Part shown: positions 1,548-18,932 of the stretch, piece after piece | How positions within the stretch are numbered: position 1 is the first letter of the stretch | Layout of the letters: each line of letters starts with the position of its first letter | DNA from: Pseudomonadota bacterium | Lineage (GTDB): Bacteria; Bdellovibrionota; FAC87; UBA2466 | DNA length: 18,932 nucleotides | Direction: 5' to 3' | NCBI GenBank assembly: GCA_043718025.1 | Contig: JAYSWN010000199.1 | Location: 1-18,932 of the forward strand | Translations under genes and position numbers: made by a program | Notes under the pieces: generated by a model | Databases searched by the model: none | What the model saw: the letters and a program-made list of their open reading frames with translations, nothing else | What the model was told of the DNA's origin: nothing

Positions 1548-1808
1548 GTGAGATTCGAGTTTGATCCAGAAAAGAGTGCGAAGAATAAGAAGAAACATGG
1601 GATCGATTTCGAAGAGGCGCAGGCTTTGTGGGATGGCGCCGTGATGGAATTTCCAGTTTTCACAACCGATGAACCTCGATGGTTGGTCGTTGGAAAAATC
1701 CAAGACGTGCACTGGAGCGCTATCATTACGCGTCGAAAGGAAAACTCGATTCGTATTATTTCGGTAAGGCGTTCTCGCAAAGAGGAGAAAAAACTCTATG
1801 AAAAATAA
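1548..1808 (+). CDS. brnT: BrnT family ribonuclease toxin (type II TA)
   Basis: MRFEFDPEKSAKNKKKHGIDFEEAQALW...EPRWLVVG...IRIISVRRSRKEE..LYE matches the BrnT (DUF497) pattern FE[WF]D..K...N..KHG..FE.A / R.IS.R. Confidence 0.93.
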   Translation: MRFEFDPEKSAKNKKKHGIDFEEAQALWDGAVMEFPVFTTDEPRWLVVGKIQDVHWSAIITRRKENSIRIISVRRSRKEEKKLYEK

Positions 1809-2058
1809 GAAGAAGAAAGAAATTACGGCGTCTGAATTGGATGAAAAATTCGATCGCGGAGAAGATATCTCTGAACATCTCGATCTTTCCCAAGGAGTGA
1901 AGCGGGTAAACGTCGATTTTCCGGCGTGGTCTATTGGAGAACTGGATAAGGAAGCTGAAAGGCTTGGTGTCGCTCGGCAAGCTTTGATCAAGTTGTGGGT
2001 GATTGAAAAGCTTGATCAGCTGACTAAGACGCACGAGAAGAGAAAGACATCTGGTTAA
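1798..2058 (+). CDS. brnA: BrnA/CopG-type ribbon-helix-helix antitoxin
   Basis: ELDEKFDRGEDI..HLDLS...RVNVDFP.W.I..LD.EA.RLGV.RQALIKLW. It overlaps brnT by 11 nt. Confidence 0.9.
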   Translation: MKNKKKKEITASELDEKFDRGEDISEHLDLSQGVKRVNVDFPAWSIGELDKEAERLGVARQALIKLWVIEKLDQLTKTHEKRKTSG

Positions 2059-2895: not shown

Positions 2896-2973
2896 TGGGG
2901 TGGGCGAGGGGAATCGAACCCCCGACACCCAGAGTCACAGTCTGGTGCTCTAACCAATTGAGCTACGCCCACC
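2896..2973 (-). tRNA. tRNA-His (GUG)
   Basis: Reverse complement: G-GTGGGCG TA GCTC AATTGGTTA GAGC A CCAGA CT GTG AC TCTGG GTGTC GGGGG TTCGATT CCCCT CGCCCAC C CCA. It has G-1, discriminator C, anticodon GTG and an encoded CCA. Confidence 0.98.
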
Positions 2974-3124: not shown

Positions 3125-3745
3125 CTACGGAATGGCGGGAGCTAGTGATTTTAAAAGCGGGCCATTAAAGAGGGGCCGACAACTTAAGCCAAAGCGACCC
3201 GAGCAGAATTCTATCAGGCGGAAAGTGCCTCCCACCTTGTCCCATGTTCCTATAGTCTTACCCTGGTAAATGAGATTGTTACCTTCGGTGGGAATGGTGA
3301 GAACTGGGTCTGCCTTGGTGCCACAGCTCTTATTCGACACCTCCACCGCGATGCTTTCAGCTCGTTTAACCAAACGAATGCAATTGAGAGACGGGTCATA
3401 GTTGTTCTTGAGCAACTCAAGCTCAGCCGATGCTTCCAACTTAAGGTTGCCCAGCACCTCGGGGGTAGCCGTTGGCTTTTCGCTTGGCTGCGGAAAAGGC
3501 ACTGGAGATGGCGTTGGCTTGTTTACCACGGCCACGGGCAGCGCCGGCGGCGAGTTTACTTGGGGCACCGCAGGCAAGTACGGAGGTCGGCCCAAGGAGC
3601 AGGGGTTAAATCCCAATGACCCTCCGCCACCAGAAACCGCACCCGGTCGATTATACGAAGGGAAACCAATGTGGTCTGCCTCGCCAAACGAGATCAAAGA
3701 CAACACGCCTAAAAAGATCACAACAAAAAATCGGCTCAAATTCAT
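3125..3745 (-). CDS. Secreted hypothetical protein with Pro-rich linker and Cys-containing C-terminal domain
   Basis: MNLSRFFVVIFLGVLSLISFG signal peptide, Pro-rich segment and several Cys. Start moved to ATG 3745. Confidence 0.65.
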   Translation of the reverse strand: MNLSRFFVVIFLGVLSLISFGEADHIGFPSYNRPGAVSGGGGSLGFNPCSLGRPPYLPAVPQVNSPPALPVAVVNKPTPSPVPFPQPSEKPTATPEVLGNLKLEASAELELLKNNYDPSLNCIRLVKRAESIAVEVSNKSCGTKADPVLTIPTEGNNLIYQGKTIGTWDKVGGTFRLIEFCSGRFGLSCRPLFNGPLLKSLAPAIP

Positions 3746-3867
3746 GCAGAGCACTCATGCACCAAAAGGACCAATTGAATTCGCCGTACGTCTCAGTCAA
3801 GAATACGTATACCAGTTGTGCGGTTGCCGTAATTTGTTCGCCACTTTTTTGTAAGATCCTACACTCT

Positions 3868-4663: not shown

Positions 4664-6799
4664 CTACTGGCTTAACCCTTCACTGCGGGGCAACGCTTTC
4701 GGATCCGGCGCTTGACCGCGGAAACGCAGGTAAAGAACATCGGCCTCTTCGGTTCCGCCCCGCTCTAAAATTTCCGTTAAAAAACGTTGGGCCGTAGCCG
4801 CATCGAACACACCGTTCTTTTTGAACATCTCAAAAGCATCGGCCGCTAACACTTCAGACCATTTGTAACTGTAGTACCCGGCAGAATAGCCGCCGGCGAA
4901 AACGTGGCTGAATGTCGTTGATGACGAAAACCCCGGAACCTTAGGCAACAAACGGTAAGGGTCAGTAATGGCTTGCTCCCAAGCTTCCAAATTAGCCACG
5001 CTCACACTTGAAAGATCGCGGCTGTGCCAAGCCATGTCTAAACTGGCCAGCATCACCTGACGCAAACCACGGTAGCCCGCCTGAAAAGTTTCGGCGCGGC
5101 GAACCTTGCCGATGAGCGCTTCGGGAATGCGCTCGCCAGTATCCTTGTGCCTAGCGTAGACATCTAACACTTCGGGTTGAATCGCCCAGTTTTCAAAAAA
5201 CTGAGAGGGCAACTCAACAAAATCCCAGGTTACGCTCGTGCCCGCTAATGACGGTGTTTTCACCCGCGTCATCATCGAATGAAGCCCATGCCCCAGCTCG
5301 TGAAAAATGGTGCGCACCTCATCCCAGGTTAACGTGGCCTCCTGCCCTTCGAGCGGCGGAGTGAGATTGCCCACGTTAAGCACGTGCGGACGGCGATCGG
5401 CTCCGTGATATTCGCCAGCCCCCCGAATATCGGTCATCCACGCCCCTTGACGCTTTGACTCACGCGGAAACGGATCAAAGTAAAAGAGGGATAGAAATTG
5501 ATTGTCTTTGTCGCGCACTTCAAAAGCCTGCACCGTAGCATCCCAAGTGGGTAAATTTGGCTTGGCGACAAACTTCACTCCGTACAAACGGCTCGCCGCA
5601 AAAAAAGCGCCTTGCAACACTCGATCTAAACGAAAGTAGGGGCGCAGATCTTCGCTCTTAAAACTATATTTCTGCTCTTGAAGCTTCTCGGTGTAGTAAC
5701 CAAAATCCCAAGTCTGCAACGGATGGCCCGCCAAGGCCTCTAGCTCGGCCAAATCGCGCTCGGCCGCCGGGCGGTAAACTTTGGTCAAATCATTCAAAAA
5801 AGTTTCAACCGTCTCTGGATTTTTCGCCATCCGATCTTCGAGCTTGAAGTGCGCATAGGTGGCGTAGCCCAAAATGCGGGCTTTCTCCGCCTTGAGTCTG
5901 GCAATCTCGACGAGCACCTGTCGATTGTCGGTGTCACCCGCACTGGCGCGTCCACTGTAGGCTCGCCACATTTTCTCCCGCAAAGAACGGTTATTCAGGT
6001 AACTCAAGAAAGGGATCACGCTTGGAGCGTGGAGAGTGAACACCCACGTCCCCTCCTTTTTTCGCTTTCTGCCCTCTTCGGCCGCAGCCGCAATCGCACT
6101 GTCGGGTAGCCCGGCAAGCTCTTGGGGGTCGGTGATCACTAGCGAATAACCGTTTGTAGCGTCACTCACGTTCTTTTTAAATCGGGTGCCCAACTTGACC
6201 AGCTGATTGTCGATCTCAAGAACTTTGGCCTTCTCAGCCGGGCCCAGCTTTGCTCCGTTACGTACAAAGGCCTGGTAGGTTTTTTTGAGCAGCAGTTTCT
6301 GCTCGCCGTTGAGATTGGCCGAAGCCTGATGTTCGTAGACGTGATTTACCCGTTCAAATAACTTAGGGTCCGTAAAAATCGCATTAGAAAATTTGGTGAA
6401 AAGGGGATCGAGCCGGTCGCCGTATGCTTCGATGCGCGCATTTTTCATAACTGAGCGATAGAGTGAAAAAATCGACATCGCCTGGTCCATGGGTTCCGAA
6501 ACCAGATCTAACGCTTCAATGGTATTGGCGTAGGTGGGGGCCTCTGGACTATTTTTCACCGACTCCACCCGTGCCTGGGAAAGACGCAACCCCTGCAGCA
6601 GGGCCGAAGGAAAGTCGGAGACTTTCAATTTATCAAACGGAAACGCTTCGTGTTCTAATGTGCTGGTCAACAAAAGCGGGTTCTCCTTTAACACTAAACG
6701 ATCTGAACAGGATTTTTGCGGTTCAGCGGCAAACGCCGAAGCCAAAAACCAAAAGGACAGCCCCAATGATAACGAAAAACCCCTATTAATAGTACCCAT
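4664..6799 (-). CDS. dcp: M3 family metallopeptidase (peptidyl-dipeptidase Dcp / oligopeptidase A-like), signal peptide
   Basis: FHELGHGLH zinc motif, WDFVELPSQFFENW, KRQGAWM and FSHVFAGGYSAGYYSYKWSEVL. Probable start is MGTINRG at 6799, with a signal peptide ending ASAFA. Confidence 0.93.
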   Translation of the reverse strand: MGTINRGFSLSLGLSFWFLASAFAAEPQKSCSDRLVLKENPLLLTSTLEHEAFPFDKLKVSDFPSALLQGLRLSQARVESVKNSPEAPTYANTIEALDLVSEPMDQAMSIFSLYRSVMKNARIEAYGDRLDPLFTKFSNAIFTDPKLFERVNHVYEHQASANLNGEQKLLLKKTYQAFVRNGAKLGPAEKAKVLEIDNQLVKLGTRFKKNVSDATNGYSLVITDPQELAGLPDSAIAAAAEEGRKRKKEGTWVFTLHAPSVIPFLSYLNNRSLREKMWRAYSGRASAGDTDNRQVLVEIARLKAEKARILGYATYAHFKLEDRMAKNPETVETFLNDLTKVYRPAAERDLAELEALAGHPLQTWDFGYYTEKLQEQKYSFKSEDLRPYFRLDRVLQGAFFAASRLYGVKFVAKPNLPTWDATVQAFEVRDKDNQFLSLFYFDPFPRESKRQGAWMTDIRGAGEYHGADRRPHVLNVGNLTPPLEGQEATLTWDEVRTIFHELGHGLHSMMTRVKTPSLAGTSVTWDFVELPSQFFENWAIQPEVLDVYARHKDTGERIPEALIGKVRRAETFQAGYRGLRQVMLASLDMAWHSRDLSSVSVANLEAWEQAITDPYRLLPKVPGFSSSTTFSHVFAGGYSAGYYSYKWSEVLAADAFEMFKKNGVFDAATAQRFLTEILERGGTEEADVLYLRFRGQAPDPKALPRSEGLSQ

Positions 6800-6982
6800 A
6801 CTCTGGACTTGCCGCACCGAGCCGCGCGGCGTCAATGCGCCAGACACATTGTGAAGACAGTTTGATTCACTCCAAAAGTGAAAATATTTTGTAACGATCG
6901 AATTTGCTGACTGGGCACGCAAAATATTCTATTTTTAGCCATCGACTCACAAACCAAATTCATAAAACGGCTAGAAAAACAG

Positions 6983-8743
6983 TTGGCCAGCTTGCGTACC
7001 CGCGAAGCCAGTCTGGCCACGGCCCGGATGGTGACTTTTGGCCTTGGCTTCTTCGGCACCATTGCGTTGGTGTTTGCCCGCCATCCCTGGGGCCCCCCTT
7101 TTTCCATCCTTTTTGTAGCGACCTTTATCGTTCTGGTGCTTTGGCACTCCAAAGTGCGCACCGCCCTGCGCAAACGCGTAACCTACCGGATAATTTTAGA
7201 ACGAGAAGTTGCGGTGATTGAACGCGATTGGACACGTCTTCCCGCTCTGCCCCTTTACGAAACCGTGGGATCACCCCGCTACTATTCGGATCTGGATCTG
7301 GTGGGCGAAAGCTCATTGCTGCGGCTTTTAAACACCACCCTCTCTAATTCTGGATTTCAAAAATTGGCGGCCTTATTTTCGAGCAACGGCATCACCAACG
7401 ATCTGATTTCGCATCGTCAGGCGATCGTAAAAGAGCTTCAGGCTAAACGCGCCTTTCGCCGCAAGCTTCACTTGCTCGGCAACTTAGAAAACGATGCTAT
7501 CGTTGATCTGCTGAGCCTCGAGTCTTTCGTAGACGAGCCGTTTCATTCAAGCCAGGCGCCGCGAATGGTATTGGCCATCGTTGCGCTTTATGTTTTAGCC
7601 ATTGCGCTGGGCATCGGTTTTATCGCACGGTCAATTGGGCCGTATTTTCTGGTGCCATGGTTCGGCGCTTTCTTGATTTTTTCTTGGGCTTCATCGCATT
7701 TTTACAATCCGTTTGGGCGGGCCCTCACCTTAGAAGCGACGCTCACTAAGTTTTCTAAAATCGCTCGCCTGCTTGAATCGTACCGGGCAAAAAAAGGGTC
7801 TGACCTGGCGGCGCTACTTGAACCGTTTCAAGGCTCACACCGCCCTTCTAAAGAGGCCCGCAAACTTAGTCTGCTGGTCAGTCTGTTAAGCACGCGGGCA
7901 AATCCGTTGGTCTACATTCTGGTTCACATCGTCTTTCCGTTAGACTACGTGGTCACCTTGGCGCTAGAGAGTTTTCGCAAACGGCTAAAAGAGGACGTAA
8001 AGGCGTGGACCACCTCTTTTTCTGAGCTCGAGGCCTTTTTGTGTCTAGCTGGTTTCGCCGACATTTTTTCTAAAGTGAGCGTCTACCCGGCGCTAGTTAA
8101 CGAAAACACTCGTGCCCCCCACCTCGAGGCTAAAAAGGTGCGCCACCCCCTGTTGAATGAAAAAGAGAGTATCGGTAATGACTTTGTATTAGACGAAGCT
8201 CACTGGTGCGATCTCATCACCGGTTCGAACATGTCGGGCAAGAGCACGTTCTTACGGACCTTAGGTTCCAATGTTCTACTCGCCAAAGCAGGGGCTCCCG
8301 TCTTCGCCGAGGCCTTCCGTTTTTCGAACTGCCGTCTCTACACCATGTTGCGGGTCGCCGATTCGCTCGAAGACCACGTCTCCTCTTTCTACGCCGAAGT
8401 GCAGGCCCTTAAAGAAATTTTAGACGCCGCTAATGAAACGGCGGGACCACCGGTGTTCTATTTGATCGATGAAATTTTCAGAGGAACGAATAACCGCGAA
8501 AGGCTTTTGGGAAGCCGCGCCTACATCGAGGCTATGTCTAAGTTACGGGCCGGCGGTTTAATTGCCACCCACGATCTTGAGTTGGCTGAACTTGCCCAGA
8601 CCAAAGAAGGTATGAGCAACTTTCATTTTAAAGAGATTATCGAGGGAAACAAAATGCGTTTCTCTTACCTTATTGCGTCGGGACCGTGTCCTACCACCAA
8701 CGCCCTAAAGATCATGGAGATCGCCGGCCTGCCGGTTCCCTAA
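6983..8743 (+). CDS. Membrane-anchored MutS-related ATPase (MutS domain V)
   Basis: Walker A ITGSNMSGKSTFLR, SSFYAEV, Walker B LIDEIFRGTN and IATHDLEL, with N-terminal TM helices and no mismatch-binding domain. The start is uncertain because the frame is open back to 6911. Confidence 0.9.
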   Translation: MASLRTREASLATARMVTFGLGFFGTIALVFARHPWGPPFSILFVATFIVLVLWHSKVRTALRKRVTYRIILEREVAVIERDWTRLPALPLYETVGSPRYYSDLDLVGESSLLRLLNTTLSNSGFQKLAALFSSNGITNDLISHRQAIVKELQAKRAFRRKLHLLGNLENDAIVDLLSLESFVDEPFHSSQAPRMVLAIVALYVLAIALGIGFIARSIGPYFLVPWFGAFLIFSWASSHFYNPFGRALTLEATLTKFSKIARLLESYRAKKGSDLAALLEPFQGSHRPSKEARKLSLLVSLLSTRANPLVYILVHIVFPLDYVVTLALESFRKRLKEDVKAWTTSFSELEAFLCLAGFADIFSKVSVYPALVNENTRAPHLEAKKVRHPLLNEKESIGNDFVLDEAHWCDLITGSNMSGKSTFLRTLGSNVLLAKAGAPVFAEAFRFSNCRLYTMLRVADSLEDHVSSFYAEVQALKEILDAANETAGPPVFYLIDEIFRGTNNRERLLGSRAYIEAMSKLRAGGLIATHDLELAELAQTKEGMSNFHFKEIIEGNKMRFSYLIASGPCPTTNALKIMEIAGLPVP

Positions 8744-8744
8744 T

Positions 8745-10121
8745 TCACTTTAATTGTAAGTCGCTCCAAATTTTTTCTTCAGTATAAAAACCATCGTGCC
8801 CGCTATCTTTGAATTCACTAAAGGTCACTCGCCCCTTTAACTGGTTCACGGTGGCGGTAAATGACTCGCTCGGCACTAAAGGGTCCAACGCACCCGCGTA
8901 GAGAAAAAACTTAAGGCCCGGAAACTCTTCCAAACGCTTTTGCACGTTTTCAATTTTATAGGGTTCTCGTTTAGTCACAACGGCCACAACGTTGTTCCAC
9001 TTCTGTTCAAACGCCACACTCAGGCGACACTCGTTAAACGGCAGCTCGGCTGGCTTCAACCCTTGTTGTTCCAATACTCGTTGGGCAGCAACACAAACAT
9101 CTTCATCGTCAACTAACGACGCTTCCACCAACCCCACCACCGAAGCGGCAAATCCATTGTGGCTCAAGTAAGAATTGAAGAAAAAGGCTTGGGCAATCCC
9201 CCTTACCCAACTCAAAAAATAATCGTGTTCATGGTAGTCAGCCGCCACAATCCACTCATGCACCGCGGCCCAGCTGGCCGGAAACGCTAAAGGAAAAACC
9301 AGTGCGTCGAGTACCCCGGGACCACAAATACGGCTAGTGCCGTCGGTAAAGCAAAGGGCGTCGGGTACACGTTTACGCGCTTGTTCGATAATTCGGCGGT
9401 CATCAGGATATTTCTTAAAATAAAGATCTCCGATTCTCTGCTGCGCTTGAATTCTAAAAACAAACTCTTCCACCGCGTCCTTTGCAAACGCCGCGCCGTG
9501 GGCGTATGCCGCAAGTAAACTCTGAGGAGCCATTTCTACGTAGCGCTGAACCATCCAACCACCGGCGCTTTGGCCGTACGCTTTCCACTTTTTGTTTACT
9601 CCCAGCAGTTTCTCGCGAATCACTTCAGCGTCTCTTACGATCGCCTTACTTCCGTAGTGGGCCAATCGTTTCGCGTTAGTTTCATTTATTTCACTAGGGT
9701 AAGGCGTCGAACAGCCGGTGCCCCTTTGATCGATGAAAACCATGGGGATTTTTTTGGCGGCAATCTTTTCTCTCATCGCCGTAAATGAGCCGTGGCTTTC
9801 AATGGTTGGGCCACCATTAAAGAAAACGATGGCGTCTTTGGTTTTCACTTCGGCCGAGTTCCAATAGTAAAAAACGTCAATGCGCGGCGAGGAGGGGTCA
9901 GACCAGTTTTCGAGAACGCTCACACTCCCCTGCTCATACTCCGGAGGTAGAGCTTCTAGAAAGGTCTCACATATTTTTTTCGGATCAACGGCGCGAGGGG
10001 TGACCCAAACGTCGGTAGGCAGCGGGTTCCATTGGGTTCTTGGGGCCGGGGCGGCAGGCGGTGATGTGCGCCCACACCCGTAAAGTAAAAGACCGAGGAC
10101 CAGGGAGAAAAAAAGTTTCAT
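8745..10121 (-). CDS. Alpha/beta-hydrolase lipoprotein (prolyl aminopeptidase/TAP-like)
   Basis: Lipobox MKLFFSLVLGLLLYGC, FNGGP, DQRGTGCS, nucleophile GQSAGG, GALDPLVP (Asp) and SGHDG (His). Confidence 0.85.
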   Translation of the reverse strand: MKLFFSLVLGLLLYGCGRTSPPAAPAPRTQWNPLPTDVWVTPRAVDPKKICETFLEALPPEYEQGSVSVLENWSDPSSPRIDVFYYWNSAEVKTKDAIVFFNGGPTIESHGSFTAMREKIAAKKIPMVFIDQRGTGCSTPYPSEINETNAKRLAHYGSKAIVRDAEVIREKLLGVNKKWKAYGQSAGGWMVQRYVEMAPQSLLAAYAHGAAFAKDAVEEFVFRIQAQQRIGDLYFKKYPDDRRIIEQARKRVPDALCFTDGTSRICGPGVLDALVFPLAFPASWAAVHEWIVAADYHEHDYFLSWVRGIAQAFFFNSYLSHNGFAASVVGLVEASLVDDEDVCVAAQRVLEQQGLKPAELPFNECRLSVAFEQKWNNVVAVVTKREPYKIENVQKRLEEFPGLKFFLYAGALDPLVPSESFTATVNQLKGRVTFSEFKDSGHDGFYTEEKIWSDLQLK

Positions 10122-10173
10122 ATGCCTGGCACCTATACCATTTTGCGAATCACTAACCCAGGCGCCTAAATTG

Positions 10174-10935
10174 TCACCGGTAGGCTGTCGCAAACTTGCT
10201 AAAATCGGCCGCGCCCAGCCGGATGGTGTCGAAACCGTTTGTAATTCTGGCCTCTTGCAAGTTCAAATCGATCGCCATCTCCCGGAAGGCCCCCACGTCG
10301 GCGGCGCTGGGTGCCGTTACTCCCAAAATATTGTCCTGCCCCAAAAGGAAGTTATGATTATGAAGATTCTGCGAAACTTGCCAATCGGGATTGGTGTTAA
10401 TCTCCTGCTTCACCCATGCCGTTATTTTTGCGAGCCCTTTCATGCCGGCTTGGTTGATCGTGTAATAAAATATTTTGAGTCCGCGGTGCCGACGCGACCG
10501 CAATACGAATGCCATGAATTCAGTCGGGCTTTTCACCATGTCCATGCGGTCCGTCTGTTGGCTTAACAAAAGAGCTTCCCAACACTGAATGGGAAAAATC
10601 AGGGTTGGATTCTCGATCGCCACCTTCACATTAAAACGATCGGCAGAATGGGCTGGCAATAGCGGCAAGGCCCGTCGTAACAGACTTAACGCGGAGAGAT
10701 CTGGTACGACGCCAAGAACCGTCTCCCTATATTTATCAAGCGATACGCTATTCGGCTTGGAGGCCTTATAAAACGCTACCGAGTCAGCCACTTCCCAAGA
10801 TTGAAACAGCTCACTCCCCGGCATAGCGGCCGGGCCATTTGAGAATAGGATAATTGGCGAAGTCACAAACTCGCAAGGCATGGCCGATAGCCCGAGCCCC
10901 AAAGAAACCAGTAAGAAAGCAAACCACAACCTCAT
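10174..10935 (-). CDS. Secreted protein with JAB/MPN-like metal motif
   Basis: Signal peptide MRLWFAFLLVSLGLGLSA, followed by E (TEFMAF) ... LHNH-x15-SAAD. Confidence 0.55.
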   Translation of the reverse strand: MRLWFAFLLVSLGLGLSAMPCEFVTSPIILFSNGPAAMPGSELFQSWEVADSVAFYKASKPNSVSLDKYRETVLGVVPDLSALSLLRRALPLLPAHSADRFNVKVAIENPTLIFPIQCWEALLLSQQTDRMDMVKSPTEFMAFVLRSRRHRGLKIFYYTINQAGMKGLAKITAWVKQEINTNPDWQVSQNLHNHNFLLGQDNILGVTAPSAADVGAFREMAIDLNLQEARITNGFDTIRLGAADFSKFATAYR

Positions 10936-11016
10936 CAAACGAGGGTAGCGGGGCCGGTCCGAAAAGGGAATCTGCCGGCTTATTTAGCGTTATCGCAATT
11001 TAAAAACAGGAAAAGC

Positions 11017-12093
11017 TTAACGTCGCTTAACCCCAAGAAATTGAATGCGATCGACCAGGTCCTTTTCAATGGATTCGGCAATTTTATTTTGCCCCAAGGC
11101 CGAGGGGTGAAAGGCATCATCGGCGTGCAAAAGTTTGAGATCGTCTAGCAAAGCCCCGTTGATCGCCTTCGAATAAACCACTTCGATTTCATCCGAACGC
11201 CCGGCCTTCTTAATTTCATCGCTAAGCTCCTTGGCCAACGTCTCAATCGCCACATTTATTTTTTCGGCCAGTTCCACGATCTCTTTCGTTTGAAGAATCG
11301 AGGGAAACCGTTCTGTAGCCATTTCGAAAAAGGGGAAGTTCTTTGGGTTTTCAACATGCCTTTTTTCTGCAAGCCGCCGAGTCTCTAGCGAGGTTTTAAT
11401 GTTCATCGTTCCGAGCAGCACGATGCTCACCCTAGTTTTCTTTTCGGCGTAGCCCTTGATCAATGATTCCAATTCAATGCGGTACTCCCGTTGAATGCTT
11501 TGCGGAATGCTCGCCAGGTAGTCTTCTTTCTTCGTCGTCTTCAAATCAACGATGTTGTCCAGGTCATATTGAAAATCCAAATTGTTGTGGAATGGGGCCA
11601 GTAAGATCAAATTTGGTTTGTCGTTTAGCTTTTTCAATCGAGCCATCTGCGCCGAGAAATTTTGAATCCCGCCCAACAGATTGGCCATGCTGCGATTTAG
11701 CTTGGTGGCTTTGTCGACATAGGCCCCGGCCCATGCCGCATTCGTCATGCGCACTGGGTAGGCAACGCTAAGCCGTTCAAAAACTCCCGTGAGTTCGCTA
11801 CCGGCCGGGGTGGCCAGGTTCATCGCCCAACCTTTAAAATGACGGTTACGCGTTCGCTGCATCATTTCGGCGGTAGTATTGTACGTCATCTCCCCGCAGG
11901 AGACGCTGTCGCCCAATACGTAAAGATCGAGGCGCTGGTCCGACGGTACGGCTTCAAACCCTTCGCTCATCGCCACGTCGCCGGATACCTTGAAACCGTT
12001 CGCGGCGCCAGCGGGCCTCTCTGCCCTAGGCTGAGGCGGTTGGCCGCAGGCGATTAGGGGAATGAGCAAAAACAAGAAATTTAAGTTTTTCAC
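11017..12093 (-). CDS. SGNH/GDSL hydrolase lipoprotein
   Basis: Lipobox LIAC, block I VLGDSVS, block II NAAWAGA, block III FHNNL and block V DAFHPS..GQ.KIA. Confidence 0.85.
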   Translation of the reverse strand: MKNLNFLFLLIPLIACGQPPQPRAERPAGAANGFKVSGDVAMSEGFEAVPSDQRLDLYVLGDSVSCGEMTYNTTAEMMQRTRNRHFKGWAMNLATPAGSELTGVFERLSVAYPVRMTNAAWAGAYVDKATKLNRSMANLLGGIQNFSAQMARLKKLNDKPNLILLAPFHNNLDFQYDLDNIVDLKTTKKEDYLASIPQSIQREYRIELESLIKGYAEKKTRVSIVLLGTMNIKTSLETRRLAEKRHVENPKNFPFFEMATERFPSILQTKEIVELAEKINVAIETLAKELSDEIKKAGRSDEIEVVYSKAINGALLDDLKLLHADDAFHPSALGQNKIAESIEKDLVDRIQFLGVKRR

Positions 12094-12171
12094 GCAGGAC
12101 CTCTGCGCGACTTATATAGAATTGAAGGAGGTGGATCAACAGGCCAAAATTGTCACGCGAACAGAAAATAG

Positions 12172-12216
12172 AAATAGCCAAGATCGAGATTTTACCTTCG
12201 AAATTGGCTGTTTTTT
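12172..12216 (-). terminator. Probable intrinsic terminator after csp
   Basis: AAATAGCCAA (12172-12181) pairs with TTGGCTGTTT (12204-12213), with T/A-rich flanks on both sides, about 20 nt past the csp stop. Confidence 0.5.
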
Positions 12217-12233
12217 AACTATTTAAATGAGAC

Positions 12234-12431
12234 TTACGACAGAACGCGAACGTTGCTGGCTTGTGGGCCTTTTTTGCCCGCAACCACGTCGAATTCTACT
12301 TGCGTGCCTTCTTGGAGATCGGCGCCGCCGGTGTCATTGGCATGAACGAATACGTCTTTTCCGCCGCCTTCTGGAGCGATAAATCCGAAACCTTTGCCTG
12401 TGTTAAAAAACTTTACTGTGCCTTTAGCCAT
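12234..12431 (-). CDS. csp: Cold-shock protein (CspA family)
   Basis: [18 protein letters not shown] (RNP1) ... DVFVH (RNP2) ... [10 protein letters not shown], 65 aa from ATG 12431. Confidence 0.97.
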
Positions 12432-12550
12432 TTTTATTGCTTTCTTAGATATGTAGACAACTAACTTTGGTCGCCTGTAATCGCCCAGAATAGACACGTT
12501 TTTTGTAAATGTCTCGCTAATTCTTTCAAAACAGCAAGGCCCTCACTCCG

Positions 12551-13798
12551 TCAGCGTTCCAAAACCCCGCCTTGAAGCCAGGCTTGCATGCTTGGGCGCA
12601 AAAGATTTTCGAATCGGGCCACCACCGATAGTGCCTGTCCGGTCTTGGGTCGGAGCGCAGGCCCGCGCGACCCATGATAGATGCCCGCTATAAAAGGCAG
12701 TTGCGAGTCCTCTCTTTGCCAAGGATTGCCAAACAGTAAGCTGGTTCCCGAATCCCCTTTGCCTGGGCTGCAGTGGTCGGCGTCTTGAATTTTAAGATCA
12801 TTTTCACGAATGGCCAGGTACTCCGGCTCACCATCGCCGGTGGAAAGCATGGAATTGCTAATTTTTATGCGAAAGGACTCATTTCGCCCCCCCGAGCGAA
12901 ATGCTTTGGTCAGTTTCTTGTCCTGGTCAGCGCAGCCATCGGCATCTACCGCTTGCCCTAACGGCGTCCAGGGACAGAGGTCTTTTTGGTTTACCACTCG
13001 ATCTGAATCGAAGTCGCCGTGGCCGGGCTGAATGGTATCAATCTGAAGTCCCCAGCCATTAAGGCTCAGTCTTTTACCTTTTATATCTAGAGTTGATTTT
13101 GCCAGCGGCAAAGAACGGATACCTCGAATGTCTGATCGAGCCACCGCAACATCGTAAATCCCGCTTGTGTTGCCCTCTGGTTCAATCAGTAGTTCCAGAA
13201 GATAGAGTGGATGAACCTTAACCGAACCCTCACGCAGGGGGAGAACACCGGGACTTCCCTCGGTGACGTACTGCACTCGTTGGTGTCTAAAGGCCTGCAG
13301 ACTGCTCAACTCCCGATCCAAAGTGGTTATGGCGACCATCAACTTCTCCCAATCAACGGCACTGACTTGGGCCGTGCCACCAACGAAGAGGTCACGAGGA
13401 ATTAAGGGTTGTTTGCCTGGTGGCGAGGCAAAGGCGTGGGTGAAATGTTTCTCCAAGGCCACCAGCCTCTCCTCCGACCAAGGCACATTCGCCTTCATCA
13501 ATTTTCTAATTGAAAAGAGGGATTCTCCCAAATAGGTCCACCATCGGCTGTACAAACGAGCGGTAATAAAACAATGGGCGGCGCTAACGACAACGGACCG
13601 AACCAACGGCGCATCGATATAGCCGAAAGAATTAGTTCCCCCACATGTCCCGACGATCAAATCATTGCCCACTTTATGCGCCGACTCGATCACTACGAAT
13701 GGACTATTGTTTGGATCTCTGGGTAGGCCATTGTTGCCAAAAATGGGGAAGCTAAAAAACAGACTGGCAAAGAAATACCGCCACGCTTGGTCATTCAT
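12551..13798 (-). CDS. Divergent trypsin-like (S1) serine protease, secreted, with TSP3-type insert
   Basis: Signal peptide, TCGG, SAAHC (His), YDVAVA (Asp), GWG and GKGDSG (Ser). Insert DFDSDRVVNQKDLCPWTPLGQAVDADGC. Confidence 0.85.
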   Translation of the reverse strand: MNDQAWRYFFASLFFSFPIFGNNGLPRDPNNSPFVVIESAHKVGNDLIVGTCGGTNSFGYIDAPLVRSVVVSAAHCFITARLYSRWWTYLGESLFSIRKLMKANVPWSEERLVALEKHFTHAFASPPGKQPLIPRDLFVGGTAQVSAVDWEKLMVAITTLDRELSSLQAFRHQRVQYVTEGSPGVLPLREGSVKVHPLYLLELLIEPEGNTSGIYDVAVARSDIRGIRSLPLAKSTLDIKGKRLSLNGWGLQIDTIQPGHGDFDSDRVVNQKDLCPWTPLGQAVDADGCADQDKKLTKAFRSGGRNESFRIKISNSMLSTGDGEPEYLAIRENDLKIQDADHCSPGKGDSGTSLLFGNPWQREDSQLPFIAGIYHGSRGPALRPKTGQALSVVARFENLLRPSMQAWLQGGVLER

Positions 13799-13799
13799 C

Positions 13800-15386
13800 T
13801 TAGTCCCCCTGAATTTCCGGCAGGGCGTAGGCCGGATTATAGTAAAAGTAGTGATTAAATTGTCTGACCGAACTCACCAATTCCCAACGCCAGATCGTTT
13901 GGCCTGCAATAATTTTCCCCTCGTAGTCGGAGAGACGCAATCCAGCGCTTTTAATCTGATCTTCAAATGAACTCCAAACCTTCTCATTATGGTCAGACAC
14001 CTTTTTGTTGTACTCGTTGAGTGCGGCGAGTTGCCGCGTAAATTCGCCCTCGGGAATATTTGCGGGTCGTACCACTTGGAGACCATTGGAAGGAAACGGC
14101 ATTCCCTGCAAAAGGCAAAGTCGGTGATAGCTGCCCGGCAGTTGGGCAATGCCGTGGGCTCGAAGTTCCGCCATTGATCCGCGGCGTGGCGGATCATCTT
14201 GTTCATTGATTCCAGGAATTACGCTTTCGAATTTCGCCGTGTATTGGTGACGATAGTAATAGGTGCTGTAGTAGGGATTAGGTAGTTTTGCCTGAATAGT
14301 CGTCGCAAACTGATTCCAGAGATCGGTATTCGCCGCATGAATTTCCGAATTGTCGCGGCCTACTCTGGCGACATAACCACGAAACGCCTCATTGTAATCC
14401 ACGGGTACATTCACCGGCTGTTTCATCGTCCTGTAAATAGGAACCCTAATGCCCCATTCGAACGCCAAGTACTCATCTGTCCCTAGACGATGCGTGACAC
14501 TACGATTTTCTGCCGTGCCAATATTGGCGGGATGATAGCGATAGTAGAGCTCAGGCTGCAAAACTTTACTAGCGCCGTTGAGTTTGAGTGAACGGCGTTT
14601 TGCATAGAGTTCGTCACAAAAGCGCTGCCACCTTACTAGGTTGCGCGCGTCTATATTGACCGCTTTGCCCTTCAAAATCTCGTTAGTTCTTGGGTACAAT
14701 TCAGGAAAATGTGGTTCGCCGACAACAACCTCTTTTGGCAGGTAGTCGTGCGCGGAGGGCGGTTCAATGCCAAAGTGTTTCAGTTCACTATCGCTTCCAG
14801 GACGCAAAATCAGATCAACGGGGTCAACCCGCTCAACATTTGCCTGTTCGGTGTACGAAGATTCTGATGCAATGAAGTAGTAGTCATCATTATTGAGAAA
14901 TTTTTTTAAGTCCGGACCATCCGTAACGCGAATAAAAATATTCTCGGGCAATACCACCCCTTCCAAATCAAACTTAAGCCCCTGCTTCTCTCCACTTCGT
15001 GAAGGCCTCACTTTTGCGCGTAACACCGGAACGATTATTTGGGCACTCTTCTGTTCCCGCGTAAGGCGGACATAGCCTTTGGTTACAGTAACAAACAAAT
15101 TCACATTTACCGTGGTATCCAGGTTTCCCTCGGTGGGAATGATCACTTTGAATTCGTTATCTCGACCAAAAACTGCGGGATCAGCCTGTTCGGCTATTTT
15201 TGGATGGTCTTTTAAGTAGTCTTCCAGAACCCGCCGTGACTCTGCGCTATACTGCTCGGTAACGTTTAATTTGGTTTGCCCTATCTCCCTTTTTGAAATC
15301 TGGGCTGATTCCTGCCGGGCGTAGCCAATCCGGCCAAAAAATACGACCAGTATCGCGGAGACGAAACAAAAATGGTTAGTGCGCAT
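13800..15386 (-). CDS. Secreted hypothetical protein (528 aa) with internal helical repeat
   Basis: Signal peptide MRTNHFCFVSAILVVFFGRIGYA. It overlaps the upstream gene by 11 nt and ends 1 nt before the protease start. Confidence 0.8.
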   Translation of the reverse strand: MRTNHFCFVSAILVVFFGRIGYARQESAQISKREIGQTKLNVTEQYSAESRRVLEDYLKDHPKIAEQADPAVFGRDNEFKVIIPTEGNLDTTVNVNLFVTVTKGYVRLTREQKSAQIIVPVLRAKVRPSRSGEKQGLKFDLEGVVLPENIFIRVTDGPDLKKFLNNDDYYFIASESSYTEQANVERVDPVDLILRPGSDSELKHFGIEPPSAHDYLPKEVVVGEPHFPELYPRTNEILKGKAVNIDARNLVRWQRFCDELYAKRRSLKLNGASKVLQPELYYRYHPANIGTAENRSVTHRLGTDEYLAFEWGIRVPIYRTMKQPVNVPVDYNEAFRGYVARVGRDNSEIHAANTDLWNQFATTIQAKLPNPYYSTYYYRHQYTAKFESVIPGINEQDDPPRRGSMAELRAHGIAQLPGSYHRLCLLQGMPFPSNGLQVVRPANIPEGEFTRQLAALNEYNKKVSDHNEKVWSSFEDQIKSAGLRLSDYEGKIIAGQTIWRWELVSSVRQFNHYFYYNPAYALPEIQGD

Positions 15387-16062
15387 AAATATATGTGGGT
15401 TTGTTAAACGTTACCGTGGTGTCCGAATATTCAATTCGGCGCCAGGTTTTTCCGTTGTGCTCGCTAAAGCCTCCCGGGCATCTTAAGACTTGCCCAGTTT
15501 TTACCCGGTGCACAACTCCGCGCACCGCGACGGGATCGGTTGCTTTGACTGAAGAGCCATCTTCATCGCTGTCGTCATCGTGAATGACCGTACGGCGCCG
15601 ATCGATATTTAGATTCACGTCAATAACCGTACCCACATTGCCGGCAATCACGATCACGGTGACCGAATTAAACTCGTCCTGTTGCAAAACAACCCTGCCG
15701 CCCTTCGCCGTAGCCTTTAAAAAATGTCCTATCCGTTTTCGAACTTTAACGTCGGTACCGATGTTATCGACGATAGCGATAACATCTAAGTGATCGTGGC
15801 TTCGAGAGATGAGTAGGTGGTCCCTACCGGATATGGGGAGTTTCCGTTCCTCGGAATCTTTCATGGTATTGAATATTTTTCTCAGGTGTTCGGTAGGTAT
15901 TTCAATTCTGGTGGCGTGCGCCTCATTGAACGACTTGATCCCTATCAGCTGCTTAGCCCCTTCGCTTGAAATTACAAGGTCATCTGCAGTAGCGCTAAGG
16001 CCTACCAACTGAAAAAAGATAGCGATGGGAAACATCCCGAATGATTTTTTAACTTGCATCAT
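15376..16062 (-). CDS. Secreted hypothetical beta-rich protein with [GD]N[IV]G repeats
   Basis: GGAG RBS then MMQVKKSFGMFPIAIFFQLVGLSATA signal peptide. Contains IVDNIGTDVKV and IAGNVGTVIDV motifs. Confidence 0.75.
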   Translation of the reverse strand: MMQVKKSFGMFPIAIFFQLVGLSATADDLVISSEGAKQLIGIKSFNEAHATRIEIPTEHLRKIFNTMKDSEERKLPISGRDHLLISRSHDHLDVIAIVDNIGTDVKVRKRIGHFLKATAKGGRVVLQQDEFNSVTVIVIAGNVGTVIDVNLNIDRRRTVIHDDDSDEDGSSVKATDPVAVRGVVHRVKTGQVLRCPGGFSEHNGKTWRRIEYSDTTVTFNKPTYIYAH

Positions 16063-16074
16063 CACTCCCGACGG

Positions 16075-16106
16075 AAAAAATGGCGGAGGAGAGTGCCCCC
16101 CCGCCA
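16075..16106 (-). terminator. Intra-operon intrinsic terminator
   Basis: The minus strand reads TGGCGGGGGG-GCACTC-TCCTCCGCCA-TTTTTT: a 10-bp GC-rich stem (2 G-U pairs) plus U6, 11 nt after the stop at 16118. Confidence 0.8.
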
Positions 16107-16117
16107 ACCTTCATATA

Positions 16118-17131
16118 CTAACGCCGGCGGCCAAAAAACCATTGGGTCGGTTGATGCCAATAGACTACCGGTGCGGGAGCGGGGGTCACCCATTGTGTGA
16201 TCACCGGTTGCTGAGTGACGTTGGTGGTATGATAATTTTTGACGATGGGCGCAGGACGAGGGCCGGTCAGGGTGATGTTGCGCTCTTCGGTAGCCCCGTC
16301 GTTCGATTCATAGTCGACTGAGCCCCCAATGTTTCCTGAAATCACCAACTCAGTGTCTACGTTTCCACCAACCGTATTGCCGCTAATGCCTTGATTGAAA
16401 GAGCCCACTTGGCTGTGCCCAGCGTAGGCATCGGTTCCTGCCCCTTTTCCCGAGATTCGGGTGTCGGCTTTTTCAAGATGAATAGTCGATCTAGATAGGC
16501 TGGGAGCCCTCTGTCTCACTCGCGTCTCGACGCCGATATTTCCGTTGATCTGAGTGCGCCGCCGGACGTCGCCTCCCACTCTGGAACCGGTTATATTCTG
16601 CAAATGGGAGTCTTGAACGACTCGCCCAGGAATATTGACCACCATATTTGGTCTCGACTCTGTCTGCTGTCCGGGCTGTGCGGGAAGCGACGGGGTCGGG
16701 GGATTGGCTTCGGCACCCGGCCCGCGCGCTGGCGCCTGGCTAGCGGTCTCATCTGGCGAAGCGGGGGTCGGCGGTAGATCTCCTTCTTCGCCGCGCGACA
16801 ATTGGTCTACTTTAAGTTCACTCACTTCCACGCGTTCACAAGACCTAGCCAACTCGACCTCAAGTCTAGCGTCTGCGGGTATAGCCTTCCCTTTTTCGTT
16901 GAGGAAAGCGCCGTCTTTATTCCTCTTTAACTCAACTCCATCGGCTTTCACCGATTGCACTGGGCATCCGCGAAAGGCCAATCCCCAAGCCGCGCCTCCG
17001 GAATCAAGACCATCTACTTTCAAAGTTTGCGTCTCGTCCGCGTAAGCAGACGAAAGAGTCAGCAAGACTGCGCTTGCCAAAATCCCTCGACCGCGCCGTA
17101 ACTTTGTTTTTAACATAGCTAATTTTCCCAT
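16118..17131 (-). CDS. Secreted hypothetical protein: Cys-pair N-domain, Pro-rich linker, GNIG beta-repeat domain
   Basis: Strong RBS (AAGGAG..AAGGA) before ATG 17131 and a signal peptide ending SSAYA. Repeats ITGSRVGGDV..INGNIG and ISGNTVGGNV..ISGNIG. Confidence 0.8.
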   Translation of the reverse strand: MGKLAMLKTKLRRGRGILASAVLLTLSSAYADETQTLKVDGLDSGGAAWGLAFRGCPVQSVKADGVELKRNKDGAFLNEKGKAIPADARLEVELARSCERVEVSELKVDQLSRGEEGDLPPTPASPDETASQAPARGPGAEANPPTPSLPAQPGQQTESRPNMVVNIPGRVVQDSHLQNITGSRVGGDVRRRTQINGNIGVETRVRQRAPSLSRSTIHLEKADTRISGKGAGTDAYAGHSQVGSFNQGISGNTVGGNVDTELVISGNIGGSVDYESNDGATEERNITLTGPRPAPIVKNYHTTNVTQQPVITQWVTPAPAPVVYWHQPTQWFFGRRR

Positions 17132-17185
17132 TTCCTTTTCTCCTTGTTTTCTTTTTTGGCTGTTTTCCAACTCAGTACCGCTGAC

Positions 17186-18553
17186 CTATTTTCTCCACTC
17201 CGCCTCGGTCAATGTCGGCGTAAAACGGGCTGCCTTAAGGCATAAAACTTGATTTTCAAATTTGGTAACCACGGGGGTTTTACCTTCCGCAGTTTTTAGC
17301 TCGGCCTCTGACATTTCCTCCGCGGCGGTGAGGGTGTAGTCGCGGTCAATTCCCGTAAAGGGTCCACCGAGCCAGCTCAAATAGGATAAAGGCAGCTTGG
17401 TGGCACGGTAGTAGTGAGGTACCGGCACTACCACCTTAAGCGCCTGAAGTGCGTGACCGGCAACCAACGCCGAGATTTCCCAAACCAGTTTTTGAGCCCG
17501 GCCATTGTAATTCTTGAAAAGCATTTCCTGTGAGTCATGGAAAAAGGTGATGGCTTCTAGATCAGTGATAGGAAATTGATCCACTTTATCGGCGGCTAGA
17601 GTTTCCTGACCCTTAAAGAAACCTGCGGGGTAGGGAGAATGGTTGGCTTCGGCTTTCTGGCGCGCGTGTTTGGTTTGAATGTAATTTTCGCGATGGGGAA
17701 GTTGTTCCCACCGATTCATCGCGCCGAGATAGGTTCCGAGCGAATTACCGTATCCGATCCGAACAGAAATATTGCCGGAGCGCCGAGGTTGAATTACCAG
17801 GCGAAGTTTTTCATTTTCTTTCCGAGCCAAGCCCATTGAACTGGGCGCAACCCACACTTTACCGGTTGTCGGATCCATCAGCTCCACCGAATCAAAGAGG
17901 GCCGCAAGATTTTGCTCTGGGAAATGGTGCAGGTAGTTTGCGCCCTGGTTAAACTCCATCAAAATGCCGCTACCGAAGCGATTGCCAATGTCGCTATTGT
18001 CGGAGGCCAATTGGCAGGGGTTCAGACGCGAGGTTGAGACAGGAACCGGATAGGCTTCAGTAAATTTTTTCTGCCACTGTTTAGAGTCACCAAAAACGGG
18101 AAGTTTTGCGGTAACTCTCACCGAGCCTAACGCCAAGAGAGTTGCCTTATCAAAAATTTGATTGGGCAGCCCCTGGTTTACCACCACCACGTCAAGTGAA
18201 GTCAGTTGCGAATCATTGATATCGATGCGAACGTTCTGCTTGCCGCTAACGGTGAGGTGGTGCGAGACATTGCGCGCGGCACCAGTTAGCATCTTAAACC
18301 AGAGTGGGCTATTCACCTGCCCCGAACTCTCGAAAATAATTGAATCGTCTTTAGTTGTGACGCTCTCGCGCTGATTTGGTTTTGTTTCGGAATAAGTAGA
18401 GCGGCGTTCTTTAACGACGGTACCTTTAAAGGTTCCAAAAGTTTTGGGTTCTTGCCCAGGACCAACTGGTAGTTGATTCGGCAGCTGCCCGAACGCCATG
18501 TTAAAAAACGTAGAAAACCAAATCCAAGTCGAGATGCCCAGTTTACGTTTCAT
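17186..18553 (-). CDS. Secreted hypothetical protein (~455 aa), first gene of the operon
   Basis: Long ORF. Probable start MKRKLGISTWIWFSTFFNMAFG (ATG 18553) gives a signal peptide. No family recognised. Confidence 0.78.
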   Translation of the reverse strand: MKRKLGISTWIWFSTFFNMAFGQLPNQLPVGPGQEPKTFGTFKGTVVKERRSTYSETKPNQRESVTTKDDSIIFESSGQVNSPLWFKMLTGAARNVSHHLTVSGKQNVRIDINDSQLTSLDVVVVNQGLPNQIFDKATLLALGSVRVTAKLPVFGDSKQWQKKFTEAYPVPVSTSRLNPCQLASDNSDIGNRFGSGILMEFNQGANYLHHFPEQNLAALFDSVELMDPTTGKVWVAPSSMGLARKENEKLRLVIQPRRSGNISVRIGYGNSLGTYLGAMNRWEQLPHRENYIQTKHARQKAEANHSPYPAGFFKGQETLAADKVDQFPITDLEAITFFHDSQEMLFKNYNGRAQKLVWEISALVAGHALQALKVVVPVPHYYRATKLPLSYLSWLGGPFTGIDRDYTLTAAEEMSEAELKTAEGKTPVVTKFENQVLCLKAARFTPTLTEAEWRK

Positions 18554-18864
18554 CTTAAGCCCAATCCAATTTTCGAAATTCTGCCCAACTCGACACCCGT
18601 TTTTTTCCGACAATTTCGGTCGGCGAAGCCGTCGGACACTTCACAACTCGGCGCGTCGCTTTACTGTGTGACTTCTTTGCAGCATGGCCTGGGGAAGCGA
18701 ACTGATATTTTGTGGCGCGAATAAAGGCCCGGAGATTGAATCGAATTTCTGAGATTCAGAATTGGAATTTGCAAACAAGCTCTGGACCGCAATGAGCACG
18801 TAAGAATAACGTTTCCATCGACTGACGATTAATCAATGCTAGGAATCTGCGCTTTGATTAGTTA

Positions 18865-18903
18865 GTCCCTTTCGGGAAACGCTTCGCGTTTTCCGAAAGG
18901 GAC
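18865..18903. repeat. Strong 18-bp hairpin (REP-like or terminator-like)
   Basis: GTCCCTTTCGGGAAACGC-TTC-GCGTTTTCCGAAAGGGAC with one G-T pair. Confidence 0.7.
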
Positions 18904-18932
18904 GTGTCCTGAGGCAAAGCCGAAGGATCTTG

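Follow-up and report, generated by a model that had tools for sequence, protein, structure and literature searches.

A conserved, so far unrecognised secreted gene module, probably structural, in one genus of a Bdellovibrionota-like lineage

Do adjacent genes whose products all appear to be exported serve one function, and if so, what could they build? This question is raised by five open reading frames (ORFs) on the minus strand of an 18,932-nucleotide (nt) contig of a Bdellovibrionota-like bacterium (JAYSWN010000199.1; this whole stretch is hereafter called the window). In reading order, these are gene 1 (17186-18553; 455 amino acids, aa), gene 2 (16118-17131; 337 aa), gene 3 (15376-16062; 228 aa), gene 4 (13800-15386; 528 aa) and gene 5 (12551-13798; 415 aa). 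As an initial annotation had described, 54 nt separate genes 1 and 2 and 55 nt genes 2 and 3, genes 3 and 4 overlap by 11 nt, and 1 nt lies between genes 4 and 5. That annotation, made from the window alone, proposed an all-secreted operon with a major and a minor repeat subunit, two accessory proteins and a dedicated protease. Our results indicate that the cluster is a real, conserved and so far unrecognised secreted module, probably structural in function, and that it is narrower in range and looser in organisation than had been proposed. Genes 1 to 4 are orphans: no family was found above cut-off in Pfam, NCBIfam, PHROGs or PDB sequence profiles, in line with the initial annotation, which had recognised none. 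A literature search on Bdellovibrionota and functional amyloids, by titles and abstract starts, found no report of such a cluster.

Conservation and organisation of the locus

The distribution of the cluster was assessed by profile searches with genes 1, 3 and 4. Matches were obtained in four of 401 genomes of the phylum, all belonging to the window's genus of uncultured bacteria: the window's own genome (G000, a 4.1-Mb assembly that is 92% complete) and its three congeners (G001, G002 and G003). The three genes were not found in the 397 other genomes of the phylum, nor in any of 30 other genomes of the family. Gene 2, used as a single query, had matches in 4 of 61 genomes, and when gene 4 was used in a pattern scan across GTDB, these three congeners were the only genomes returned. 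Pattern scans found no relatives in JGI metagenomes (genes 4 and 3) or in viral contigs; these locus scans are not exhaustive and missed the JGI/IMG protein P0014. Protein databases added one homologue of gene 4 (P0008) and three of gene 3 (P0014-P0016), all singletons. P0008 and P0016 each lie on a 4,695-bp contig, suggesting that they are linked on one contig. P0014 is encoded on a contig of 46,750 bp and P0015 on one of 2,804 bp. Searches of protein databases with gene 2 and with the gene 1 profile, based on shared words and a size window, returned known members only, and the ESM Atlas gave no usable match for proteins 2 and 4, a result that shows neither novelty nor absence.

The initial annotation had named a lack of co-occurrence in other genomes as its refutation and conserved synteny as a check. 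Such a refutation was not seen: genes 1 to 4 are adjacent, in the order 1-2-3-4, in all four genomes of the genus. In G002 a contig break falls inside gene 3; in G001 genes 1 to 3 lie at the end of one contig and gene 4 begins another, the two presumably joining. The transcriptional arrangement is less constant. The three congeners carry gene 1 on the other strand, so that it stands head-to-head with gene 2 over an intergenic stretch of 120-270 bp. The co-orientation in the window is no misassembly, since the junction between genes 1 and 2 is bridged by short contigs of two sequencing runs (X3 and X5, the latter from a second study). The stretch 12000-18891 is also unbroken in contigs of runs X1 and X2, which are possibly the window's own source. 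On comparison of the window with loci L009, L010 and L011, gene 1 is inverted relative to gene 2 in one lineage. Gene 5 directly follows gene 4 in G000, G002 and G003 (the G003 copy is cut by the contig end), and it overlaps or abuts the gene 4 stop in three of the four genomes. In G001, which is 94% complete, an ORF on the opposite strand follows gene 4, and the gene 5 profile found no copy. The locus is therefore a four-gene core with an optional protease, and neither a fixed five-gene operon nor a dedicated, obligatory protease is supported.

We compared the divergence of the cluster with that of its surroundings. Of 16 proteins flanking the cluster in G001 and G002, 12 have a match in G000, 11 of them at 51-91% identity, and none of these matches is on the window contig. 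The cluster proteins share only 27-37% identity between G000 and its congeners. In the closest pair (G001 and G003), the ratio of nonsynonymous to synonymous substitutions (dN/dS) is 0.08-0.17 for genes 1 to 4, which are thus under purifying selection. The shared order, the different flanks, the low identity and the low dN/dS together imply a module that stays together, sits at changing positions and evolves rapidly. Genes 1 to 4 very probably serve one function.

The case for a system stands on this conservation and not on the gene run itself. Signal peptides were called with a hand-made hydrophobicity heuristic that is permissive (1388 of 3169 genes of the genome are positive). By this measure, a hydrophobic N-terminal stretch is present in all five cluster proteins, as expected for the Sec-type signals that had been assigned to them; the N-terminus of gene 1 is the weakest in G000 (1.32) and is clear in its three homologues (2.5-3.2). 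Runs of at least five co-oriented signal-peptide-like genes occur four times in G000, compared with a mean of 2.7 in 1000 shuffles, so that five in a row are not rare in this genome. No lipobox kept across homologues and no later transmembrane segment was found in the cluster proteins. Tat export of protein 2 was considered and rejected, since its twin-arginine pair is absent from the homologues.

Dosage signals of gene 2 and paired repeats of proteins 2 and 3

Which product would be made in the largest amount? Gene 2 is preceded by a strong ribosome-binding site, AAGGAG (17140-17145, minus strand), whose Shine-Dalgarno pairing reaches -8.0 to -8.5 kcal/mol in all four genomes according to a crude duplex energy. 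The claim that it is the strongest site of the cluster holds in the three congeners and fails in G000, where gene 5 (-9.4) slightly exceeds gene 2 (-8.5). Gene 2 is followed by a GC-rich stem-loop with a T tail (16081-16106, minus strand), the terminator of the initial annotation. A hairpin occurs at this place in all four genomes with unrelated stem sequences (z -2.2 to -4.5; 5, 1, 0 and 2 of 200 shuffles fold equally well). The T tail is clear in G000 and weak in G001, and G002 and G003 also have one. A strong start combined with a downstream hairpin is a signature of major subunits in pilus-type operons, although a literature search for this rule returned no papers. Among the sequencing runs listed as containing the locus, none is an RNA run. 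The persistence of both signals in four of four genomes suggests that the gene 2 product is a major subunit made in high copy number, as had been proposed.

Proteins 2 and 3 differ in layout and share a repeat. Protein 2 comprises a signal peptide, a domain of about 80 aa with invariant Cys56 and Cys98, a Pro/Ala linker, a core of two repeats and an aromatic tail. Protein 3 comprises a signal peptide, two hydrophobic repeats 40-45 aa apart and an aromatic-rich C-terminal module. The repeat unit consists of a strand, the motif [GDN]N[IV]G and a second strand in which hydrophobic and polar residues alternate. Exactly two copies are present in all four gene 2 proteins and all seven gene 3 proteins, which bears out and sharpens the earlier observation that GN[IV]G repeats are common to both genes. 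In gene 2, repeat 1 (16508-16585, minus strand; aa 183-208) is basic, with a net charge of +4 to +5, and repeat 2 (16301-16378, minus strand; aa 252-277) is acidic, with a net charge of -4 to -5, in four of four proteins. These repeats are 69-78 aa apart, and an extra Gly-Asn/Asp turn precedes the motif by nine or ten residues. In gene 3, repeat 1 lies at 15733-15810 (minus strand; aa 85-110) and repeat 2 at 15607-15684 (minus strand; aa 127-152), the latter with IAGN.G.V invariant in seven of seven proteins. The last 45 or so residues of the gene 3 protein (aa 183-228 of P0003) have Tyr, Phe-Pro-x-Gly, Trp and a terminal Y-[VI]-Y-A pattern conserved in the six complete proteins; they could form a binding module.

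The kinship of the repeats was evaluated by profile comparison. The two repeats of gene 3 match each other at 95% (E 5.6e-8), and the match between the two repeats of gene 2 is weaker (24%, E 8e-4), with 6-9 of 26 residues in common (shuffle p 0.0001-0.019). The gene 2 and gene 3 profiles match at 77.5% (E 1.9e-5) when built from four sequences each. Among 13,535 ORFs of G000, the repeat-unit profile found nothing else (next E 2.2). The repeat cores are nearly free of proline and rich in Val/Ile/Thr, Gly and Asn. When repeats 1 and 2 of gene 2 are placed in register, 4-5 opposite and no like charge pairs are formed in all four proteins, exceeding the registers slid by one or two positions. In gene 3, such a charge-complementary pattern is found in only one of four proteins.

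Possible export and assembly of the products

Gene 1 has an invariant pair, Cys180 and Cys438, that likely forms a disulfide, and its C-termini carry no terminal aromatic residue in four of four proteins. Its model is of low confidence (predicted local distance difference test, pLDDT, 41) and weakly renders the C-terminal part as a small beta-barrel. It matches small barrels, soluble and membrane alike, with VIA-align Z up to 5.5, including 6czj_B (root-mean-square deviation, rmsd, 3.6; 92 residues aligned) and OmpW (Z 5.3, rmsd 4.8, 120 aligned). Gene 1 was compared on this account with an outer-membrane pore, for which an amphipathic barrel with a C-terminal aromatic signal would be expected. 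Gene 4 has a conserved beta-rich N-terminal part followed by three helical repeats of about 105 aa (aa ~195-500), each ending in a long helix and matching each other pairwise at 90%, 83% and 18%. Its model reaches a pLDDT of 64 overall and a predicted template-modelling score of 0.37, with a best VIA-align Z of 5.2. Foldseek returned nothing at E 0.001 or better for the models of genes 1 and 4, which are whole-chain models of more than 400 aa in which known folds are possible. Sequence and profile comparisons of gene 1 with gene 3 and with gene 4 showed no common origin, and this candidate relationship was dropped. The N-terminus of gene 4 resembles the repeat in one of 13 comparisons (32%, E 5e-4), a hint only, which becomes weaker with a deeper alignment.

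Gene 5 was annotated as an S1 protease. Like the S1 (chymotrypsin-clan) proteases, it carries the triad motifs in order: C52, AAHC with H75 (Cys-x23-AAHC), D216 and GDSG with S350, and these are kept in the G002 homologue. It differs from them in lying below Pfam detection (no trypsin match), in a long insert between His and Asp and in a TSP3-like insert (aa ~260-290); its best PDB profile match (E 0.16) covers the His motif only. By the order of its motifs, gene 5 is best regarded as a predicted, divergent S1-like serine protease.

From the linkage, selection, hairpin and repeats described above, we infer, tentatively, that genes 1 to 4, a genus-restricted module, may build a secreted beta-stacking fibre with the gene 2 product as its main subunit, a reading that we prefer although it could well be wrong. 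Sec would carry all products across the inner membrane. The domains with Cys pairs would then fold in the periplasm and leave it through a chromosomal type II secretion system, an export route by which the cluster would need no pore gene of its own; none is evident in any of the four loci, in agreement with what had been noted for the window. GspD is above the family cut-off in G000, G002 and G003. In protein 2, the basic repeat and the acidic one would lie on each other as a two-rung cross-beta or beta-solenoid core displaying the small N-terminal domain. Protein 3, made in smaller amounts downstream of the hairpin, might be a minor subunit whose hydrophobic repeats nucleate or cap the fibre. 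Protein 4 might provide an anchor, cap, tip or binding arm and protein 1 an accessory assembly factor, and protein 5 would be an optional processing or cargo enzyme that trims, releases or rides on the structure. High divergence is common for surface proteins, and the divergence of the cluster, far above that of most flanking genes, was counted in favour of a surface fibre.

Several observations weigh against this fibre. The likeness between genes 2 and 3 drops to 21% (E 0.001) with a seven-sequence alignment of gene 3, and may be that of a shared short motif only. With the invariant positions fixed, the charge test gives p values of 0.011, 0.11, 0.008 and 0.009 for what are related sequences, and antiparallel neighbours are equally charge-complementary. 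Asn and Gln make up a modest 8-20% of the core and charged residues 13-26%, each chain has only two repeats, and the inward face of the proposed core would carry an invariant Arg. The gene 4 N-terminus resembles the repeat only weakly: 2 of 60 column shuffles reach this resemblance, and the repeat profile found no match there. A Sec signal by itself is no evidence that a protein leaves the periplasm. Finally, GspD is also present in G007, a genome without the cluster, and is below cut-off in G001, so that it is permissive and not specific.

Three other explanations were weighed. The four products may instead assemble into a secreted complex of finite size, for example a ring or a beta-barrel pore with two beta-hairpins per subunit. 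It would act on the envelopes of prey or competitors of this possibly predatory lineage, and the protease would activate it. Several oligomeric barrels are built from two hairpin-like units per chain, and the alternating second strand, the fast divergence and the position of gene 5 at the gene 4 stop in three of four genomes would all suit such a complex. We nevertheless hold it to be unlikely: protein 2 has basic and acidic strands with two polar faces, which fit a membrane poorly, the conserved signal for stoichiometry points to one subunit in many copies, and the protease was not found in G001.

It is likewise doubtful that the genes encode co-regulated secreted enzymes or effectors that act in one process without assembly, genes 2 and 3 being old paralogues with an ordinary globular beta-rich domain. 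The order of the genes and the hairpin after gene 2 persist at 27-37% identity while the flanks change, and no catalytic family was found for genes 1 to 4 in Pfam, NCBIfam or PHROGs. What speaks for such effectors is that signal-peptide genes commonly stand in runs in this genome, that at least six ORFs of G000 carry S1 motifs, that no clear sequence common to genes 1, 4 and 5 and genes 2 and 3 was found, and that protein 3 also contains helix-like segments by eye. An envelope scaffold or lattice kept in the periplasm or at the outer membrane, with no extracellular fibre, would agree with the Sec-type signals as the only export signals, with the loci lacking a pore gene and with stretches of the gene 5 TSP3-like insert that match envelope proteins such as PA1041 and TraB, but it is improbable given the high divergence for a core envelope structure, the different chromosomal sites of the cluster and the lack of a conserved lipobox or later transmembrane segment.

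The rest of the window contains other elements. A palindromic repeat of about 70 bp (18862-18932) ends the contig, with near-identical copies (96-100%) at the ends of seven other contigs and a read depth about 8 times higher there; we regard it as an element like repetitive extragenic palindromes (REP) or miniature inverted-repeat transposable elements (MITE) that breaks the assembly. At 1548-2058 (plus strand), a BrnT toxin gene (PF04365) is followed by an overlapping 86-aa ORF that lacks a Pfam match and is probably the antitoxin. A gene for a 23S rRNA-intervening-sequence protein (PF05635; 2281-2700, minus strand) stands beside tRNA-His (2896-2972, minus strand), and GC content is lower at 1-2500. 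The toxin-antitoxin pair, the PF05635 protein and the low GC may mark a small islet at the tRNA 3' end. The stretch 4664-12425 encodes an M3 peptidase, a MutS domain V protein, an alpha/beta hydrolase, a GDSL-like protein that was not found in five relatives, and a cold-shock protein. Four further ORFs on the minus strand (257-892, 936-1244, 3125-3754 and 10174-10938), some with signal-peptide-like starts, have no Pfam match. Elsewhere in the genome (contig C232, 13151-29614), ten co-oriented signal-peptide-like genes are headed by a 1256-aa frame with S1 motifs.

Comparison with known systems

With four families that have no detected relatives outside the genus, held together as a module with a conserved signal for stoichiometry, the cluster is a strong lead towards an extracellular structure that has not been described, in a lineage that is poorly sampled. 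Its range as known is narrow (four genomes and a few metagenome proteins), and it is known here from genes alone. If protein 2 forms cross-beta fibres, they would add to curli and Fap a further bacterial amyloid design, one with another export route and a natural domain-displaying fibre. We therefore compared the cluster with these systems. The curlin repeat (PF07012) was found in none of five genomes, including all four of the genus (E. coli control positive), and CsgG (PF03783) in none of the same number (77-98% complete, again with all four of the genus; 4 of 14 controls positive). PF13557, which we take to be a proxy for FapF, was not found in G000-G002 and matched once in G003, weakly and without linkage to the cluster; none of 14 controls was positive. 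No ORF for a FapF barrel or a C39 peptidase was found in the four loci, whose contigs end near the cluster.

Like the cluster, the Fap system of Pseudomonas (fapABCDEF) combines two secreted repeat proteins with accessory proteins and a peptidase. The first half of the FapC motif is GN-hydrophobic-G-hydrophobic-N (PMC12392863), and Fap subunits mostly have three imperfect repeats of about 38 aa (94% of FapC). The gene 2 proteins of the three congeners have a loose counterpart of this first half in their repeat 1, NN[IV]GTNV. The other half, aaG*gNqQN, was missing from all 11 gene 2 and gene 3 proteins in a pattern search for its G-x-N-x-QN part, and these have exactly two repeats and not three. 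FapD is a C39-like peptidase (PMC5135000), unlike the optional, S1-like gene 5. With the repeat motifs missing and a peptidase of another family, the kinship with Fap and curli suggested by the initial annotation is not supported.

Curli (csgBAC/csgDEFG) resemble the cluster in having adjacent major and minor subunits and a divergent accessory gene, curli having two divergent operons (PMC5135000). They differ in that the cluster subunits carry extra domains with conserved Cys pairs. A parallel in design is the fungal prion-forming domain of HET-s, in which two pseudo-repeats stack on each other and are joined by Asn ladders, salt bridges and charges that complement one another (PMC4344463). 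Protein 2 likewise combines a folded domain, a linker and two pseudo-repeats with aligned Asn/Gly and complementary charges; gene 2 thus shows the in-register pattern of an amyloid, which would also suit antiparallel neighbours. HET-s differs in being an intracellular signalling amyloid, with repeats of 21 aa and a loop of 15 aa, whereas protein 2 starts with a signal peptide and its repeats are spaced by 69-78 aa. The parallel would be an analogy of design only, and we claim no sequence relation. The cluster could conceivably represent a third, independently evolved functional-amyloid system of Gram-negative bacteria, with a secreted, HET-s-like charge-complementary major subunit that would polymerise into cross-beta fibres displaying a folded domain, a paralogous minor subunit as nucleator and type II export without a CsgG- or FapF-type pore, a proposal that we regard as bold and rather unlikely. 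By its gene content and repeats, the cluster appears to be neither curli nor Fap, though it may work like either.

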